DNA of 64,000 bases from an uncultured Alphaproteobacteria bacterium (GTDB lineage Bacteria; Pseudomonadota; Alphaproteobacteria; Rhizobiales; Beijerinckiaceae). The notes beneath the pieces are model-generated. The model had not been told where the DNA came from. It saw only the letters and a program-made list of their open reading frames with translations, and did not search any database. The position numbers and the translations under genes were made by a program. Shown here one piece after another: positions 29,373 to 37,504 of this stretch (position 1 is the stretch's first letter; each line of letters starts with the position of its first letter). Location of the stretch: positions 18,535 to 82,534 of the forward strand of contig CAVVJO010000018.1 in the NCBI GenBank assembly GCA_963748545.1, given 5' to 3'.

Positions 29373-29528
29373 GATCGGACCCGGCGACGCGGCAGTCTCT
29401 TAAGCGCCGCGCGGGACGAACTAGGACAGCGGAAATCTCACTCTACATTGTTAACCAGATTTGATATGAATTATCTTTGCCATCGAACGCGTAGCAGAAA
29501 ATGCGAGACAGCACCGAGAGGCGATACA

Positions 29529-29783
29529 ATGCACAAACTGGTTATTTCGGGCGCCATTGCCGCGTTCGTTTCAGCGGCGCAGCCTGCTTTAGCGGGATCG
29601 TTCTTTGATTCTGGGGCTGGAGGCGTTGTCGGACTCGCCGTCGGCCTCATGGCCGGACAGGCCATGTTCTGCGCGTCCCATCCAGAAGCCTGTCAGGGGC
29701 GCCGTGCGGTACGAAGGGTGGCGCTGCTCACCGATCGGAACCTGAGCGTGCTGTCACGTACAAGCACTCGGCCCCCCATGTGA
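29529..29783 (+). CDS. hypothetical small secreted protein with glycine-zipper segment
   Basis: SD GAGAGG 8 nt upstream. Signal peptide MHKLVISGAIAAFVSAAQPALA, then GGVVGLAVGLMAGQAM and CASHPEAC. The Arg-rich tail may be out of frame (see findings). Confidence 0.45.
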   Translation: MHKLVISGAIAAFVSAAQPALAGSFFDSGAGGVVGLAVGLMAGQAMFCASHPEACQGRRAVRRVALLTDRNLSVLSRTSTRPPM

Positions 29784-30646
29784 TGCCGGCCACGCGGACA
29801 GTTACGGCAGCCCCGTTGCCATACGCACCCCAGGCGCCCACTTCGCCATCCACGTCAAGCCCGGATGAAACGAGTTATCAGCGCGCGCTCGAAGAGCGCC
29901 TGGACAAGGTGGTGCAAGCCGCCACAAAGCAGCTTAATTTCGTGGCCCAATTCATAAAAGAGCATCCCAAGAGCCCCAAACTCCTCGAGTACCTGAGTGA
30001 AACGGCTACACTTAAAGCTGCTGTCGAGAAGGGCAATCCCGACGACATCGAGCAAAAATCGACAACGCTATCCGCGGACTTGGCGCGAGATCAGGATTAT
30101 CAGGTGTTCGACGCCAAGCGAGCGAAGGAGCAGAAGATTATAGAGGCACAGAATTTAAGCGACGACATTCAACGGGCCCAAGTTCAGCGCGCGTTCCTCA
30201 TTGACTACGTTACCAAGAATCCACTCGCATCCGAAGTCGTAAACTTTCTGCCGCTTATCAAGCAGGTCGATCCTGCACTCGAGAACCCGGGCGTTGATCA
30301 ACTGCAACGATTGACCGGTCAGATCGAACTCGCCATCCGTGAAGCCAATCTCGATGATGCGTTTCGCAATTTTCAAGTAGACCCGGCAAAGCCTTCTCTG
30401 CAGATCGACGGCAACAATGCTGAGCAGAACGAAATGAGGCTGCCGATCACAGACAAGAACCGCTTTCTTCTAGAAGGCGATCTCAACGACGTGATCGCGC
30501 TTTACAACGCAAGCTCTCGCGCGCCTCATGTTGCCCACAATTTGCGCGGGCAATTCGTGTTTACTGGCGACCGCGCGGCTATTTGCCTTTTTGGTGACAA
30601 CCCCGCGGGGGTATCGCTCATCGTCCGCTCCAAACTGGCTCGATAA
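29783..30646 (+). CDS. hypothetical protein (no recognised family), low-GC islet
   Basis: Start overlaps the preceding stop (TGATG). A Pro/Ser/Thr-rich N-terminus is followed by a ~200-aa helical region and a beta-rich end (...FVFTGDRAAICLFGDNPAGVSLIV). About 50% GC versus about 66% in flanks. Confidence 0.5.
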   Translation: MPATRTVTAAPLPYAPQAPTSPSTSSPDETSYQRALEERLDKVVQAATKQLNFVAQFIKEHPKSPKLLEYLSETATLKAAVEKGNPDDIEQKSTTLSADLARDQDYQVFDAKRAKEQKIIEAQNLSDDIQRAQVQRAFLIDYVTKNPLASEVVNFLPLIKQVDPALENPGVDQLQRLTGQIELAIREANLDDAFRNFQVDPAKPSLQIDGNNAEQNEMRLPITDKNRFLLEGDLNDVIALYNASSRAPHVAHNLRGQFVFTGDRAAICLFGDNPAGVSLIVRSKLAR

Positions 30647-30718
30647 GTCATCAAAACCGTCACCGGACTTGAGCAATCGTGTGATGCTCAAAAGCTCGAA
30701 ACGTATGACATCGTCGCT

Positions 30719-31768
30719 ATGCAACGTGGCGCTTTCCTGAAGACAGCCCAACCCGAAGCACTTTCCTTGATTAAGCAAATTGAAATCGGCGGTATGCGCC
30801 AATTCGCGATGATAAGCGCCAGCGAGATTGCCGCTTCATCCGCAGCCGAACGCGCTGCAGTTGAGCAGATCACGGCCGACGTTGCAGCTGGGGCTCGTAA
30901 TGGGTTTGGCGTGCTCTTGTTGGAGAACAACTCCCCAGGCTTGTGTCTCATCACATCGGAGAAGAGCGAGGCCCACTCCCAACTTATTCTTAAGAACGCG
31001 GACAAATTGACATTCGATATGCACGTCGCCCCAACCCTAGCAATCAAGTCGCTCGAGGACGCTTTCCTCGCCACAGAAAAAGCCCAGTGTGGGGCGGTTT
31101 ATGCATCTGCATCTGATCTCAAGACCATCAGTGGAAGTTTGGCTGGCGCGGGCATCAAATCCACCTTCTCCAGCCTTTGGATTGCTCCTTCGGAGCTTGA
31201 CGCCAAGGACGCCGAATTGGCTGATCAGAAACAACTCGAGGCACAGCAGTCTCTTGACCGCCAGCAAAGGGCCGACGACGAAGCACGCCTGCGGGCACAG
31301 CGTGATAAGGATCTTGCCTCAACCCAGTCCGTGCAGCAGGCGGAATTGCGCACCAAGTACGAGGGATCTGCCCAGGCGGCTGTGGCCGCCATCGTCGCGG
31401 ACGTCAAAAACTGGGAACAAAACCAGACTGGACCTGTTGGGGTTGAATTTTCAGAATTTAGTGAGTGGTTAGGTGCAATTAGATCTGACCACTGGGAAAT
31501 CATGACGACTGGCTCCGAGGTTCAGGACTATGGAACTTCGGACTTTAAGGGCCGCTCGTTGGATACCGCCCTTGCCCGTGTCACCATACGCATTAAGAAC
31601 TCGATCCTGGGTGAGTATAAGGATGCGTGCTTCGTCTTCGCGCGAATGGTCGATCCAGAATTCAATATGGTTCGTGAGCCTGTGTCCGCGCCCTGCGAGA
31701 ACATGGACCCTGTCAGAGTTTGGCAAACGGGGCACAGGTTTGAGAGCCGGTGGGTCGTCGGCGGCTAA
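30719..31768 (+). CDS. hypothetical protein with central coiled-coil (no recognised family), low-GC islet
   Basis: Same frame as the preceding ORF, separated only by TAA 30644-30646 plus 72 stop-free nt. No SD before ATG 30719. Coiled-coil ELADQKQLEAQQSLDRQQRADDEARLRAQRDKD. Confidence 0.5.
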   Translation: MQRGAFLKTAQPEALSLIKQIEIGGMRQFAMISASEIAASSAAERAAVEQITADVAAGARNGFGVLLLENNSPGLCLITSEKSEAHSQLILKNADKLTFDMHVAPTLAIKSLEDAFLATEKAQCGAVYASASDLKTISGSLAGAGIKSTFSSLWIAPSELDAKDAELADQKQLEAQQSLDRQQRADDEARLRAQRDKDLASTQSVQQAELRTKYEGSAQAAVAAIVADVKNWEQNQTGPVGVEFSEFSEWLGAIRSDHWEIMTTGSEVQDYGTSDFKGRSLDTALARVTIRIKNSILGEYKDACFVFARMVDPEFNMVREPVSAPCENMDPVRVWQTGHRFESRWVVGG

Positions 31769-31795
31769 CGCTCGCCGCTGCCTAGGGCGAAAGCA

Positions 31796-32383
31796 TTAAT
31801 TATTCGCCGGCTTCGACCGCGCGGCGAGCGCTTCGAGCTTGGCGACCATGGCGTCGCTGTCCCACTCGGCCGCGCCCTCGCGGATGGCGAGCGCCGCGCC
31901 GTCGCGGCCGACGATCAGCGTGGTCGGGAAGCCCCGGGCGCTGAGCCCGGTCGCAAGCCGGCCCTCGGGGTCAAGGTAGAGTTTCAGGCGCTTCAGCCCC
32001 ATCCGCTCGAAGGTCTCGCTCGAGGGCGACGGGCCGACCGGGTCCTTGGTCACGGCGACGACCGCGAAGTCCTTGTCCGGCAGGCGGGCGGCCAGCCGGT
32101 CGAGCGAGGGCATCTCCTGAAGGCACGGCCCGCACCAGGGCGCCCAAAGGTTGAGGATCACCGTCTTGCCGCGGAACGCCTCGATCGAAACCGGGCGGCC
32201 GGACGCGTCGAGGAAGGCGCTGAGCTCAACCGGCTCCCGGTTCAGAAGCTCGACGAAATCCGTCGTTGCGGGCGGCCGCTGCGCCTGGAGCGCCGCGAGG
32301 ATCGCAACGCCGATCCCAAGCAGAAGCGCGAGCGCGGCCCATTCGCGCCTTTTGCGGGCGGGCGCCGCGACGGTCGCGCTCAT
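31796..32383 (-). CDS. TlpA-family thiol:disulfide oxidoreductase (membrane-anchored thioredoxin)
   Basis: N-terminal TM anchor and the thioredoxin motif LNLWAPWCGPCLQEMP. The ATG overlaps the stop of the upstream HCO-like gene. Confidence 0.88.
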   Translation of the reverse strand: MSATVAAPARKRREWAALALLLGIGVAILAALQAQRPPATTDFVELLNREPVELSAFLDASGRPVSIEAFRGKTVILNLWAPWCGPCLQEMPSLDRLAARLPDKDFAVVAVTKDPVGPSPSSETFERMGLKRLKLYLDPEGRLATGLSARGFPTTLIVGRDGAALAIREGAAEWDSDAMVAKLEALAARSKPANN

Positions 32384-33792
32384 CCCGCGGCGCCCGGCAT
32401 CCTCGGCCGCGTCAGCGCCCGGATCGCGACAAGGACGAAGGCCGCCCCGCCCAGGATGGTGAAGATCGAGGCGATCCCGTGCACCCCCATGCCGGCCGCC
32501 GCCACCGGATCGAGCGAGCCGACCCCGCTCGGGGTCTTGCGCAACGCGCCATAGCCGCCCGCGACGAACATGCCGATCGAGGCCACGAACTGGCCGCCGG
32601 CGTAAAGTCCGATCAGCCAGCGCACGGCGCGCGCGGGCGCCGGCGGAAGCTGCAGCGCGTCGAGGCCGAAGGTCAGCAGCATGCCCGCGCTCGACACGCT
32701 GACGGCGGTGACGACCGCGTGGTAGTGCGCGGGCGTCCTGGTGTCGGAGCCCGTGATCAGAAAGCCCATGACGCCGCCCAGCGCAAAGAGCGCGAGCGAG
32801 GCCGCGAGGGTGAAAAAGGCCGGGTCGCGCCACGGCCATGGCCGGCCGCCGAGCGCGGCGCGGGCGTCGCGCACGAGCGCGATCGCAAACACCAGCGTCG
32901 GCAGCGCGAGCCCGAACTGGAGCAGCCGGAAGGCCTCGTGCTGCTGAGGCGAGAAGGGCGCGAACGCCGCATAGAGGAACGGCCCCGGAAGGGCGAAAAG
33001 CGCAATCGTGCCGACGGCGACGCGGAAGACTCCATCGGCGGCCGCCACCTCCCCAAAGCTGCGGCCGGCGAGAATCCGCCAATTGCTGAGGAGCAGGATC
33101 GCGTTGACGAACTGCAGCAGGTGCCCCCCGCCCCAGAACAGGGCTTCCCGGTCGGCGAGGAACGGGTCCTGCCGCGACAGCAGGACCCCGGCGACGCCGA
33201 ACGATACGAGCGCCAGGACAAAGACGAACCCGGCCAGAGCCATCGACAGGGTCAGCGTCGGCAAGGACCGCCGTCCGGGAAGATTGACGAACAGGCGCAC
33301 GACCGGGGCAAGCACCCCGAGCGCCAGAAGGACGAGGCCGATATCGTAGGCCGGATGGCGCAGGAGCGGGATATAGTTGGTCAGCTCCGGCTGCGTCTGA
33401 TCGAGAAAGGCTGGCGCGAACAGGCAGGGGAAGGCGACGAGCGCGACGCCCTGCCCGATCCGCCCGAGCGCGCCCGCCCGCGGCGCGCCGCCAGCGGCCT
33501 CGCGGGTCGCGACCGTGGTCAGAAACGCGAACACGCCGAAGAGCCAGATCACCAGCGAAAAGATCACGTGGATGACCAGGCCCTTGTAGAAGAACCCGAT
33601 CGGCCAGAGCGGCGCCTTGTCCATGCCCGGAACGCGCGAGAGCGCAAGCAGCAGGGCGAAGACGCCGGCCAGCGCCAGCGCGCCGACCGCGATCCACGCC
33701 CAGCCCCTGAGTTCGCCGGAGAGCGCCGTCCCCGCAGCGCGATCGGGCGCGTACGCCGCGGCGCGGGGCGAGGCGTGAACGATCCCGCTCAT
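32380..33792 (-). CDS. haem-copper oxidase subunit I-like 12-TM membrane protein (divergent, stand-alone)
   Basis: 470 aa with about 12 hydrophobic helices. His positions resemble HCO helices II (GLVIHVIF), VI (LFWGGGHLLQF) and X (TPAHYHAVV). The helix VII position reads QQH rather than HH. Alignment was done by eye only. Confidence 0.6.
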   Translation of the reverse strand: MSGIVHASPRAAAYAPDRAAGTALSGELRGWAWIAVGALALAGVFALLLALSRVPGMDKAPLWPIGFFYKGLVIHVIFSLVIWLFGVFAFLTTVATREAAGGAPRAGALGRIGQGVALVAFPCLFAPAFLDQTQPELTNYIPLLRHPAYDIGLVLLALGVLAPVVRLFVNLPGRRSLPTLTLSMALAGFVFVLALVSFGVAGVLLSRQDPFLADREALFWGGGHLLQFVNAILLLSNWRILAGRSFGEVAAADGVFRVAVGTIALFALPGPFLYAAFAPFSPQQHEAFRLLQFGLALPTLVFAIALVRDARAALGGRPWPWRDPAFFTLAASLALFALGGVMGFLITGSDTRTPAHYHAVVTAVSVSSAGMLLTFGLDALQLPPAPARAVRWLIGLYAGGQFVASIGMFVAGGYGALRKTPSGVGSLDPVAAAGMGVHGIASIFTILGGAAFVLVAIRALTRPRMPGAAG

Positions 33793-33796
33793 GGCG

Positions 33797-34228
33797 TCAG
33801 CTCCCCGGCAGGGGATAGAGGTGGACCGCCATCACGTAGACCACCAGACCCGACACCGCGACGAACATCCATGAGGGGTAGGTGACCCGCGCAAAGCGGC
33901 GATGCACGGCGAACCGGCCCTTCAGGGCGTTGTAGAGCGTGATCGGGACCAGCACCGCGACCGCGAAGGCCATCACGACGTGAATCGCGAGCAGCGTGAA
34001 ATAGATCGGCCTGATGACGCCCTCGCCGCCGAATTTCGCGAGGCCCGCGAAGGCGTGATAGACGAGATAGACCGCCAGAAAGACCGCGCCGATCGCGATC
34101 GCGACCAGCATCGCGCGCCGGTGGCCCTCGCGATCCTTGGCCCGGATACGACTGTAGGCGTAGAGGAGCACGACGATCGTCGCCGCATTGAGAACGGCGA
34201 GCACGTGCGTGAGATCGTGAATCGTCAT
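33797..34228 (-). CDS. DUF420 (CtaM-like) membrane protein
   Basis: MTIHDLTHVLAVLNAATIVVLLYAY...HRRAMLVAIAIGAVFLAVYLVYH...IHVVMAF...HRRFARVTYPSWMFVAVSGLVVYVM. Four TM helices, typical of DUF420. Confidence 0.8.
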   Translation of the reverse strand: MTIHDLTHVLAVLNAATIVVLLYAYSRIRAKDREGHRRAMLVAIAIGAVFLAVYLVYHAFAGLAKFGGEGVIRPIYFTLLAIHVVMAFAVAVLVPITLYNALKGRFAVHRRFARVTYPSWMFVAVSGLVVYVMAVHLYPLPGS

Positions 34229-34230
34229 CG

Positions 34231-34359
34231 CTAGTGACCGAAGGTCGGCGGGTTCATGAACACGAAGGCGTAGAGCGCTACGGCGACGCCGACGAGAACA
34301 GCCAGGAGAATCCAATTGGCTGTCGTGGCGTCGTGGTCGTTACGAGACTTCTCGGGCAT
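34231..34359 (-). CDS. small single-TM protein (cytochrome oxidase small assembly protein-like position)
   Basis: MPEKSRNDHDATTANWILLAVLVGVAVALYAFVFMNPPTFGH (42 aa). Sits directly between ctaB and the DUF420 gene, 2 nt from the DUF420 start. Confidence 0.5.
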   Translation of the reverse strand: MPEKSRNDHDATTANWILLAVLVGVAVALYAFVFMNPPTFGH

Positions 34360-34471
34360 CGGATCGCTCTTGATAAGGGGCCTCGCGCCGAACGCCTGCG
34401 GGCCCGGCGAAGGCAGGCGCGCGAAGGCGCGGCTTGCGCCGGCGGCGGGGGTCGCCATGGTCGGCAAACGC

Positions 34472-35415
34472 CTAGCGCCTAAGCAGAACCTCTGCAAGCA
34501 GGGCGGCGTAAATCAGGAACATGTAGAGGATCGAGTAGCCGAACAGCGCCATCGCCGCCTTGCGGCGCGGCCCTTCCTCGCCGTCGCGGAGCCGGTAGAG
34601 CGCGAGAACCCGCCACAGCAGGACGCCGTCGCAAACCGCGGCGATAACGGCGTAAAGAAGTCCGACGCCGGGGATCAGCAGCGGCCCGAACGAGGACGCT
34701 GCGAGCAGGACCGCATAGATCGCGATCTGCCGGCAGGTTTCGGCGGGACCGACGACATTCGGCAGCATCGGCACGCCGACGCGCTCGTAGTCGCCGCTGC
34801 GGCAGAGCGCCAGCGCCCAGAAGTGCGGCGGCGTCCACAGGAAAATGAACAGGAACAGTGCGAGCGAGCCGACCGACACGCTTCCCGTCGCCGCGGCCCA
34901 GCCGATCAGCGGCGGCAAGGCGCCGGCGGCGCCCCGATCACGATATTTTGCGGCGTCCGGCGCTTCAGCACCATGCTGTAAAGCGGGATGTAGATCGCGA
35001 TCGTCAGGGCGAGCAGCGCGGAGGCCAGCCAGTTGACCTGAACGCCCAGCGCAATGACCGAAACGACGCCCAGCAAGAGGCCGATCGCCAGCGCCTGGTT
35101 CGGGGGAACGGTTCCGCGCGGGATCGGCCGCATTGCGGTTCGCGCCATCTTGGCGTCGATGTCGGCGTCCCACCACATGTTGAGCGCGCCGCAGGCGCCC
35201 GCGCCCGCCGCCATGGCGGAGAGCGTCGCGAGCATCGCCAGGCCATGAAAGGGAACCGGCGCGAGCGCGAAGCCGACCGCGCCCGTGAACACCACGAGCG
35301 ACATCACCCGCGGCTTCAGAAGGACAAGATGATCGACGACTCCGCCCTTCGCCGCGCGGGGCTCGTCCGCTCGACGTTCGACCCTGCGCGCGATCGTACC
35401 GACCCGTGTCGTCAC
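34472..35415 (-). CDS. ctaB: protohaem IX farnesyltransferase (haem O synthase), apparent 1-nt deletion in the G-run at 34932-34935
   Basis: VDHLVLLKPRVMSLVVFTGAVGF...NMWWDADIDAKMARTAMRPIPRG...YSMVLKRRTPQNIVIG in one frame. Then GAAGALPPLIGWAAATG...FLWTPPHFWALAL...VGVPMLP in the other. GTG start. Confidence 0.88.
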
Positions 35416-35643: not shown

Positions 35644-37434
35644 TCAAGCGACGTTGTCCATGACGGTTCCGGCCGTCTCGAACTGCAGCCTCGCAAGCCT
35701 GGCGTAGACGCCGCCCTTCGCCACCAGCTCCGCGTGCGAGCCTTCCTCGACGATGCGGCCCGCTTCCATGACGAGAATGCGGTCCGCCTTCTGCACCGTC
35801 GCCAGCCGGTGGGCGATGACCAGCGTCGTGCGTCCGTTCATCACCTCGTCGAGCGCCGCCTGAACCTGCGCTTCGTTGTGGGCGTCGAGCGCGGAGGTCG
35901 CCTCGTCGAGCAGCAGGATCGGCGCGTCCTTGAGGATCGCCCGCGCGATCGCCAGGCGCTGCCGCTGCCCGCCTGACAGCGTGACGCCCCGCTCGCCGAG
36001 TTCGGTCGCGTAGCCCTCGGGCAGCTCGCGGATGAAACCGTCCGCAGCCGCGCGCCGCGCCGCAGCCTCGATCGCCTTTTCGCTCGCCTCGCCCCGGCCG
36101 TAGGCGATGTTCTCCGACACGGTTCCCCCGAAAATCGACGGGTCCTGCGGCACGGGCGCGATCCGCGCGCGGAGGGCGGCGGGATCGACGGTCTTCACGT
36201 CGACCCCGTCGATCAGCACCCGGCCCTGTTCGCAGTCGTAGAAGCGCATGATCAACTGGAACACCGTCGATTTCCCCGCGCCGGAGACCCCGACCAGAGC
36301 GACCCTCTCCCCGGGCGCGATCGCGAAACTCAGGTTGTCGATCACCAGAACGTCGGGCGCCCGGCATAGGCGAACGACACGCGCTCGAAGGCGATCGCGC
36401 CTCGCGCCGGGGGCATCGCGACGGGACGCGTCGGCGCGACGATGTGGGGGGCGACGGCGAGCAACTCGGAAAGCCGCCCGGCGGCGCCGGCCGCTGCGGC
36501 GGCCTCGCTCCACACCTGCGACAGCTCGCCAAGCGAGGTCGCTGCGAGCACCGCGAACAGCACGAATTGCGACAGGAGGCCGCCGCTCATGCTGCCCGTC
36601 GAGCACGTCATGCGCGCCGAGCCAGAGAACGAAGACGACCGCGCAGAAGGCCAGCGACACCGCGACGGCGATCAGAATCGCGCGCGTGACCGCGGCGTCA
36701 CGGGCGGCCGCATAGGCGCTCTCGACCGCGCGGGCGAACCGGGCCGCGCTCGCCGTCTCAGCCCCGAACGCCTGCATCGTCCTGACGCCGCCGAAGCTCT
36801 CGGAGGCGAAAGCGGTCGCATCGGCAAGGGTGTCCTGGGCGTGGCGCGATCGGCTGCGCACGATCCGGCCCGAGGCGATCAGCGGCGCGGCGATGAGCGG
36901 TATGGCGACGAGCACCAGCGCAGAGAGCTTGGGGCTGGTATAGACCATCAGCGCCGTCGCGCCGACGAACATGAAGAGATTGCGCAGCGCGATCGAGGCC
37001 GAGGCGCCGAAGGCGGACTTGATCTGGGTCGTGTCGGCGGTGAGGCGGGAGACGAGCTCTCCGGTGCGGGCGCGATCGTAGAAGGCGGCGTCGAGCCCGG
37101 TCAGATGGGCGAAGACTTCGCGCCTGAGGTCGGCGACGACGCGCTCGCCGAGCGTGGTGACGAGGTAATAGCGGGTGGCGGCGGCGAGCGCGATCACGAT
37201 CACCACGGCGGCCATCGCCACGAAATAAGCGTCGACCGCGCCGCCGCTGTCCTTCGAGAAGCCGAAGTCGATCATGCGCCTCAGCGCGAACGGCACCGCC
37301 AGCGTCGCAACCGACGACACGAGGAGCGCCGCCAGCGCCGCGAGCGCCCGGCCCTTGTAGCGCGATCCGTAGCGCAACAGAGGAAGGAGAGCGCGGAACG
37401 AGGCGCGCTTGGGCGGTGTCGGGGCGTCGGTCAT
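35644..37434 (-). CDS. ABC transporter, fused permease/ATPase (ABCB/MsbA-Atm1-like exporter), two compensating frame breaks (~36596, ~36356)
   Basis: Six-TM domain, then Walker A GVSGAGKST, signature LSGGQRQRLAIARA and Walker B ILLLDEATSALD. The segment 36356-36596 is correct only in the frame of track ORF 36342..36611 (SMSGGLLSQFVLFAVLAATSLGELSQVW...). Confidence 0.88.
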   Translation of the reverse strand: MTDAPTPPKRASFRALLPLLRYGSRYKGRALAALAALLVSSVATLAVPFALRRMIDFGFSKDSGGAVDAYFVAMAAVVIVIALAAATRYYLVTTLGERVVADLRREVFAHLTGLDAAFYDRARTGELVSRLTADTTQIKSAFGASASIALRNLFMFVGATALMVYTSPKLSALVLVAIPLIAAPLIASGRIVRSRSRHAQDTLADATAFASESFGGVRTMQAFGAETASAARFARAVESAYAAARDAAVTRAILIAVAVSLAFCAVVFVLWLGAHDVLDGQHERRPPVAIRAVRGARSDLAWRAVAGVERGRRSGRRRRAAFRVARRRPPHRRADASRRDAPGARRDRLRARVVRLCRAPDVLVIDNLSFAIAPGERVALVGVSGAGKSTVFQLIMRFYDCEQGRVLIDGVDVKTVDPAALRARIAPVPQDPSIFGGTVSENIAYGRGEASEKAIEAAARRAAADGFIRELPEGYATELGERGVTLSGGQRQRLAIARAILKDAPILLLDEATSALDAHNEAQVQAALDEVMNGRTTLVIAHRLATVQKADRILVMEAGRIVEEGSHAELVAKGGVYARLARLQFETAGTVMDNVA

Positions 37435-37504
37435 GGACGCCTTCCTAAACGCTTCGGACGGCAAAGACACGGCCGGCGGATGGCCCCCGTGGGCAAAATC
37501 CGCC

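Follow-up and report, generated by a model that had tools for sequence, protein, structure and literature searches.

A 64,000-nucleotide stretch of contig CAVVJO010000018.1 (assembly GCA_963748545.1) from an uncultured alphaproteobacterium of the Beijerinckiaceae, hereafter the window, carries a tightly packed cluster of five minus-strand genes at positions 31796-35415, one of which encodes a 470-aa protein here called HCOL. HCOL is a true but very divergent homologue of haem-copper oxidase (HCO) subunit I which, judged by its ligand pattern, keeps two haem pockets and appears to have lost the CuB site. It is tentatively read, with a probability of about 0.4, as a cofactor-maturation component, that is, an oxidase-biogenesis or redox protein serving the hand-off of farnesylated haem and possibly of copper. 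New in the window is an HCOL cluster that is coupled to a TlpA-like gene, lies in a genome free of eNOR and Surf1, and holds the only ctaB and the only DUF420 gene of that genome.

The kinship of HCOL with the HCO superfamily was visible by profiles only. HCOL matched PF00115 (COX1) with 58.5 bits against a gathering cut-off of 34.8 (profile positions 7-411 of 436), whereas the five canonical subunit I genes of the same genome scored 395-528 bits. BLASTP of HCOL against the aa3, A2 and CcoN proteins of its own genome returned noise only, and a single-sequence phmmer search against the PDB gave no match. Alignments were therefore built from 79 diverse relatives, 24-50% identical to the window HCOL (alignment A1), and from a larger set of 157 family sequences. 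The A1 profile matched Thermus thermophilus ba3 subunit I end to end (E ~1e-29), and the AlphaFold2 (AF2) model computed from A1 (pLDDT 92, pTM 0.93) had 12 transmembrane helices and superposed in Foldseek on the same ba3 enzyme with a TM-score of 0.76-0.79. A preliminary description of the window, made from the sequence alone, had proposed a 12-helix, non-canonical member of the HCO superfamily, and both points agree with the model, the PF00115 score and the retained haem ligands. An NnrS-like fold, which that description had named as one way of being wrong, was rejected, as Pfam returned PF00115 only for HCOL at E<=1.

The residues that bind haem in ba3 all had counterparts in HCOL. H75 in helix II aligned with the haem b ligand, H224 in helix VI with a CuB histidine, and H356 and H358 in helix X with the haem a3 and haem b ligands, so the His motifs picked out by eye in these three helices had been placed correctly. 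In addition, W220 aligned with the helix VI Trp, R418/K419 with the Arg pair holding the haem propionates, and Y140-x-P142 with the YPP motif. The four histidines were invariant in A1 (n=79) and present in 96-97% of the 157 sequences; for the whole ba3-aligned set the figures were invariance in A1 and 95-99%. Helix VI carries the motif W220-G-G-G-H224-L-L-Q227-F228, in which Q227 (His+3) was invariant in A1 and kept in 96% of the larger set. By this pattern, both haem pockets are retained and may be occupied, and the cofactor sites are under strong purifying selection.

Such conservation bears directly on a very improbable reading, in which HCOL would be a duplicated subunit I in decay, kept only as a structural prop for CtaB. 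A COX1-like protein without cofactor ligands is indeed kept in an Acetobacter ctaB cluster (PMC10715153), for which such a propping role has been suggested, and one HCOL protein is fused to a full CtaB domain (P0203, 748 aa). However, an exhaustive search recovered 993 HCOL clusters (50% identity) at E<=1e-3 and 701 at E<=1e-10, the haem ligands are invariant or nearly so, A1 holds 14 invariant columns across sequences 24-50% identical, and the fold is predicted with confidence; purifying selection of this kind is unlike the Acetobacter case.

The residues of the binuclear centre showed the opposite fate. The helix VII HH pair of ba3 aligned with F272/L273, two columns in which the 157 members have L, A, V, F or I and nothing else. 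The cross-link Tyr position (His+4) is F228, with Phe in 82% of the 157 sequences, and the K-channel tyrosines of ba3 aligned with Leu. No conserved Tyr has certainly migrated, Y274 being Tyr in only 54% of sequences. H224 is the sole remaining active-site His where a CuB/FeB site requires three, and the alignment points to a CuB site that is gone, not modified. With the His pair, the cross-link Tyr and the K-channel Tyr lost, HCOL therefore cannot work as a conventional O2 or NO reductase. The missing cross-link Tyr and the altered CuB site had both been foreseen in the preliminary description, the latter on the wrong grounds: the motif QQH, taken there for a changed HH pair, was a misalignment, since Q283-Q284-H285 lies in the VII-VIII loop and has His at that position in 16 of the 157 sequences.

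Active-site histidines are reported to be completely conserved in all HCO families but gNOR, and the nitric oxide reductase (NOR) families to have a three-ligand FeB/CuB site, made of two His and one Asp in gNOR (Murali et al. 2024, PMC11214002). Lacking the HH pair, the HCOL family therefore falls outside that catalogue. Membership of cNOR, qNOR, sNOR, gNOR, nNOR or bNOR was rejected on account of the single active-site His, and membership of eNOR on account of Phe at His+4, the absent HH pair and the lack of an adjoining CuA subunit II in the window. Identity with Surf1 was also rejected, as HCOL gave no PF02104 match.

Members of the family were found in Hyphomicrobiales, Rhodospirillales, Terasakiella, Telmatospirillum, Gamma- and Deltaproteobacteria, Nitrospirota, Nitrospinota and Actinomycetota, and the closest named relatives of the window HCOL belong to Roseiarcus. 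NCBIfam has no model for the family, whose members are annotated in their sources as 'cytochrome c oxidase subunit I', 'cbb3-type cytochrome c oxidase subunit I' or 'hypothetical'. A tree computed under LG+C20, with cNOR, qNOR and references of the A, B and C families drawn from the same genomes, placed the HCOL family as a monophyletic group (100/100) that is sister (100/98) to a clade with the helix VI motif W[GA]xGH[SPA]SQQ and an intact HH pair. This clade was identified as eNOR because of Gln at the cross-link Tyr position, which together with three active-site His is diagnostic of eNOR (PMC8756737). HCOL thus may have arisen as a paralogue of an eNOR-type subunit I, the sister placement being provisional because of small sampling with one bona fide B-family sequence. 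The earlier term 'NO-reductase-like' accordingly holds for ancestry and fails for the active site, where two of the three FeB/CuB histidines are missing.

The gene neighbourhood of HCOL was counted over 80 HCOL loci by tblastn with labelled queries, which replaced a Pfam tally since greedy calling of open reading frames (ORFs) was too noisy in these high-GC loci. ctaB was found near HCOL in 69 of the 80 loci and DUF420 immediately upstream in 57; CoxA, CoxB and CoxC were found in 32-34 (CoxA in 34), CtaG in 22, Sco1 in 19, CtaA in 14, DUF2189 in 13, eNOR I in 8 and a TlpA-like gene in 7. In most other genomes, HCOL sits inside A-family cox or eNOR clusters. In Rhodospirillales, [DUF983-CoxC-CtaG-CoxA-CoxB] is divergent from [DUF420-HCOL-CtaB]; Terasakiella pusilla has one operon of overlapping genes, DUF2189-CtaA-DUF420-HCOL-CuA protein-CtaB-CoxB-CoxA-CtaG-CoxC; in Deltaproteobacteria and Nitrospirota the order is eNOR II-eNOR I-HCOL-CtaB-Sco1; and the Roseiarcus-like lineage, the window included, has CtaB-(small ORF)-DUF420-HCOL followed by a TlpA-like gene or accompanied by a convergent CtaA. 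Among the 38 carrier genomes and loci examined, HCOL was always accompanied by an A-family or eNOR enzyme. Two HCOL copies were observed in Hyphomicrobium sp. SB8 (C55:107563-108765 and C49:137058-138233), one adjoining an A-family cox operon and the other a probable eNOR-like subunit I (223 bits, PF00115).

The genome of the window encodes five canonical HCOs, four of them A-family, which answers the question of whether oxidase operons exist elsewhere in it. Its aa3 operon, CoxB-CoxA-CtaG-CoxC, contains neither ctaB nor surf1, and a Sco1-CoxB-CoxA(A2)-CoxC operon lies ~38 kb upstream of the HCOL cluster on the same contig. HCOL is hence stand-alone, as first described, in its immediate surroundings, and not so when the contig or the clusters of other genomes are considered. 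The coordinates of the cox genes are C3:401566-405546 and C18:8277-12337. DUF2189-CtaA is on contig C15, and no eNOR was found in this genome.

These associations show HCOL to be co-inherited with CtaB and CtaM and are consistent with a helper of oxidase assembly, and among the options first put forward an oxidase-biogenesis scaffold fits the gene context best, the role itself being a proposal. In this proposal, HCOL would act in the membrane with CtaB and CtaM/DUF420 and, depending on lineage, with CtaA, Sco1, a TlpA-like reductase or a small CuA cupredoxin as possible further partners. Farnesylated haem would enter the two canonical pockets of HCOL, which would store or redox-poise it, and possibly copper, for delivery to nascent catalytic subunits. 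The clients would be haem-A/O-dependent oxidases, either A-family cox or eNOR, and HCOL would cover the job that is done elsewhere by Surf1.

A cupredoxin of 149-193 aa was encoded directly 3' of HCOL in ~10 of the 80 loci, and small cupredoxins (~150-190 aa) with a full CuA motif follow HCOL in several phyla, as at L093:11302-11751, L049, L050, L051, L055 and L058. The CuA ligand set H...C-x-E-x-C-G-x-x-H-x-x-M was kept in all eight cupredoxins checked, with Gln for Glu in L063 and L070, and the checked loci span Alphaproteobacteria, Gammaproteobacteria and Actinomycetota. The cupredoxin-linked HCOL clades branch early in the tree when it is rooted on eNOR, and three proteins (P0141, P0180 and P0186) are HCOL-CuA fusions. 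Fusions to a thioredoxin-like domain were also observed, in P0125 (661 aa, with a CxxC domain) and in P0007, which is 83% identical to the window HCOL and whose fusion is equally explicable by a 1-nt error at the ATGA overlap.

The cupredoxins argue for a different reading, a serious rival though rated somewhat less likely, in which HCOL would serve as the catalytic subunit of a separate membrane oxidoreductase with haem only and no CuB. In this enzyme, electrons from the CuA cupredoxin, a shared CoxB or eNOR II, or quinol would reach first the low-spin haem and then a high-spin haem whose distal pocket contains His and Gln. There a small molecule (O2, NO or peroxide, for example) would be converted; ctaB and CtaM would be nearby only since the enzyme needs farnesylated haem. 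That both haem sites, R418/K419, W220, H224 and Q227 are so strictly conserved fits such an enzyme, as do the intact CuA sites directly downstream in the eight checked loci, the three CuA fusions and the early branching of the cupredoxin-linked clades. However, HCOL has no second metal site and no equivalents of the cross-link and K-channel tyrosines, most members, that of the window included, have no dedicated subunit II, HCOL is accompanied by an A-family or eNOR enzyme throughout the 38 carrier genomes and loci, and it co-varies with assembly genes (CtaA, Sco1 and TlpA-like).

The partner encoded upstream, DUF420, has invariant H7, H35, H82 and H108 together with an invariant Met, Arg, Trp and three Tyr. 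Its AF2 model was a confident four-helix bundle (pLDDT 93), whose best PDB matches were the helix bundle of oxidase subunit III, at a weak level (Foldseek E 4e-3 to 0.1, TM 0.65). DUF420 gave no PDB match by sequence, and CtaA was not among the top Foldseek matches; the idea that DUF420 corresponds to one half of CtaA (Degli Esposti 2021) was thus unsupported. If HCOL is a catalytic subunit, the weak subunit III match (E 4e-3) is in its favour, and DUF420 might be a subunit-III-like partner. In Bacillota, CtaM is required for active aa3/caa3 and not for haem a insertion (PMC9145763), and a recent proposal gives it a part in exporting or reducing copper for oxidase assembly (PMC13344008). The same source assigns CtaM to the Bacillota, with no counterpart in model alphaproteobacteria, and regards Surf1 as the factor of the Alphaproteobacteria (PMC13344008).

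The HCOL lineage inverts this picture. In a sample of 301 alphaproteobacterial genomes drawn evenly across the class, HCOL was found in seven (six full-length and one interrupted) and DUF420 above its cut-off in five, all five being HCOL carriers (hypergeometric p ~1e-9, a value that ignores phylogeny). Surf1 was present in 226 of the 301 genomes (75%) and absent from four of the five genomes with both DUF420 and HCOL. Of 17 carrier genomes that were examined directly, 15 also lacked it, among them that of the window, where no PF02104 match was found anywhere in an assembly that is 90.6% complete. Surf1 and HCOL coexist in two Hyphomicrobium genomes (G006 and G007), each beside a different cox operon. 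This anticorrelation is what would be expected if HCOL stood in for Surf1.

All 17 carriers tested from Alphaproteobacteria and Actinomycetota encoded CtaA, as did the window genome, and HCOL as a replacement of CtaA was rejected for Alphaproteobacteria, where CtaA is always present. No CtaA match was found in four possibly incomplete MAGs (metagenome-assembled genomes) of Deltaproteobacteria, Nitrospinota and Nitrospirota with eNOR, HCOL and CtaB. These observations bear on an unlikely reading in which HCOL would be a redox partner in haem A formation, passing electrons to or from CtaA, or itself turning haem O into haem A where CtaA is missing. In its favour, the HCOL gene of Terasakiella and of 14 loci is found next to CtaA and CtaB or between the two, the four MAGs lack a CtaA match, eNOR is reported to carry a haem-a-type cofactor (PMC11214002), and a 2026 preprint on Ferrigenium raises the puzzle of anoxic haem A supply. 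The presence of CtaA in every other carrier tested speaks against it, the four MAGs may be incomplete and their organisms may simply use haem O, and methyl oxidation by a haem-only HCO has no chemical precedent.

A further arrangement is given little credence: HCOL, DUF420 and the CuA cupredoxin (in the window, the TlpA-like protein instead) could form an oxidase-like I/III/II complex that acts on a cofactor, not on a respiratory substrate. In one version, it would be a haem-only redox enzyme driving or poising the step from haem O to haem A, and would supply haem A at very low or zero O2 in eNOR organisms without CtaA. In another, it would be a localised cupric reductase using the vestigial one-His CuB site.

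Several points weigh against the preferred reading of HCOL as a cofactor-maturation component. A pure chaperone needs no strictly conserved pair of haem sites, propionate clamp and distal His/Gln. The pairing with intact-CuA cupredoxins in ~10 of the 80 loci and the three CuA fusions imply a real electron input. ctaB also occurs within the operons of true enzymes, such as cyoABCDE, and linkage to ctaB alone is therefore no proof of a helper role. The Surf1 anticorrelation is a statistic that ignores phylogeny. Finally, Bacillus CtaM works without HCOL, and the function proposed for it is copper export, not haem handling (PMC13344008).

The layout of the cluster is given in Table 1. Its gene set, order and shared direction were as first described, except that ctaB is not one ORF.

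Table 1. Genes of the HCOL cluster, with positions in the window.
Feature	Position	Strand	Annotation
TlpA-like thioredoxin-fold gene	31796-32383	minus	membrane-anchored; WCGPC motif; Redoxin/TlpA-like profile match
HCOL, 470 aa, predicted CuB-less HCO subunit I paralogue	32380-33792	minus	PF00115
DUF420/CtaM-like, four transmembrane helices	33797-34225	minus	DUF420 123 bits (Pfam/NCBIfam)
42-aa ORF, single transmembrane helix	34231-34359	minus	ORF conserved in related loci
ctaB (haem O synthase), two frames: 34906-35415 + 34472-35176	34472-35415	minus	UbiA/haem O synthase profiles match both halves

The start of the TlpA-like gene overlaps the HCOL stop (ATGA), and the gaps are 4 nt between DUF420 and HCOL and 5 nt between the 42-aa ORF and DUF420. 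The TlpA-like gene fills the slot held by the CuA cupredoxin in other lineages. Its naming as a TlpA thioredoxin holds for the fold, which is TlpA-like; the gene is a paralogue only, scoring 117 bits against a cut-off of 230 for the TlpA equivalog (NF047696), and the canonical TlpA (244 bits) is encoded on another contig, C20. Counterparts of the 42-aa ORF (~38-42 aa, motif R-R-N-W-[IL]-V) were found between ctaB and DUF420 in nine related loci (among L007-L024), and it may match the small ORF 3' of ctaB in classical alphaproteobacterial cox operons. A promoter and terminator scan of the cluster was uninformative. The TlpA-like gene is adjoined by a low-GC stretch at 29373-31795 (0.56 vs ~0.67), in the position of which sister loci have a convergent CtaA-DUF2189 pair; this stretch may have separated the cluster from its former neighbours.

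The ctaB gene is split by a 1-nt deletion in a minus-strand GGGG run (34935-34932), where all 10 aligned relatives have the extra base. This broken copy is the sole recognisable ctaB of the assembly, and similar ctaB splits were observed in related MAG loci. An assembly artefact (homopolymer error) is probably likelier than a pseudogene, because this is the only ctaB in a genome with four A-family oxidases and CtaA, and because of the similar splits in the related MAG loci. In the ABC transporter gene 5' of ctaB (35644-37470, minus), an apparent out-of-frame stretch was observed, and an ORF in another frame (36342-36611) resembles the genuine middle of the transporter, which suggests further compensating indel errors.

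The steps by which haem a and copper are inserted into subunit I, and the function of CtaM, are incompletely understood (PMC9145763, PMC13344008). If HCOL is a hand-off platform, it would give a tractable bacterial handle on the step behind the human Leigh-syndrome genes SURF1, COX10 and COX15; as a haem-only enzyme, HCOL would represent the first lineage of HCOs to work without a binuclear centre. In either case, oxidase counts are inflated because HCOL genes are labelled as cbb3-type or plain cytochrome c oxidase subunit I.

Among known systems, T. thermophilus ba3 subunit I (B-family) is the best solved-structure match to HCOL; the alignment pairs up the ligands of both haems (b and a3), one of the CuB His and the R/R pair for the propionates. 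The ba3 protein has H282/H283, a cross-linked Y237 and the K-channel tyrosines, none of which HCOL has. The eNOR subunit I shares with HCOL the 12-helix HCO fold, helix VI G-H-x-x-Q and the lack of a cross-link Tyr, and both occur in operons with ctaB and Sco1, the two genes being adjacent in the Deltaproteobacteria and Nitrospirota loci. Unlike HCOL, eNOR has all three active-site His (HH in 9/9 eNOR-like sequences), Gln at the Tyr position, a length of ~510-590 aa and always a CuA subunit II, whereas in HCOL the HH positions are hydrophobic, the Tyr position is Phe and the length is ~435-480 aa. The eNOR operon of the Ferrigenium preprint (eNOR II, eNOR I, haem o synthase, sco1 and a scaffold protein) matches loci L062, L066 and L071, where the order is eNOR II-eNOR I-HCOL-CtaB-Sco1, and its 'eNOR scaffold protein of unknown function', likened here by operon content alone, probably belongs to the same family. 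An eNOR-specific name is too narrow for HCOL because eNOR is absent from the window genome. Both fold and superfamily are known, and the family has been noticed in the literature, not described or characterised; neither a characterised function nor biochemistry was found for it there.

The deranged COX1-like protein of Acetobacter (PMC10715153) resembles HCOL in that it is homologous to subunit I, has no working active site and is kept beside ctaB; it is reported without any cofactor ligands, whereas HCOL keeps every haem ligand. CtaM of Bacillus and Staphylococcus, required there for active aa3/caa3, is of the same Pfam family as the window DUF420, but it acts without HCOL, while in the alphaproteobacterial sample DUF420 was found in HCOL carriers only. 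Surf1/Shy1 has no homology to HCOL and combines two transmembrane helices with a periplasmic domain, in which one His serves as ligand. It is nevertheless like the role proposed for HCOL in the hand-off of haem a to subunit I, and the phyletic distributions of the two proteins are largely complementary.

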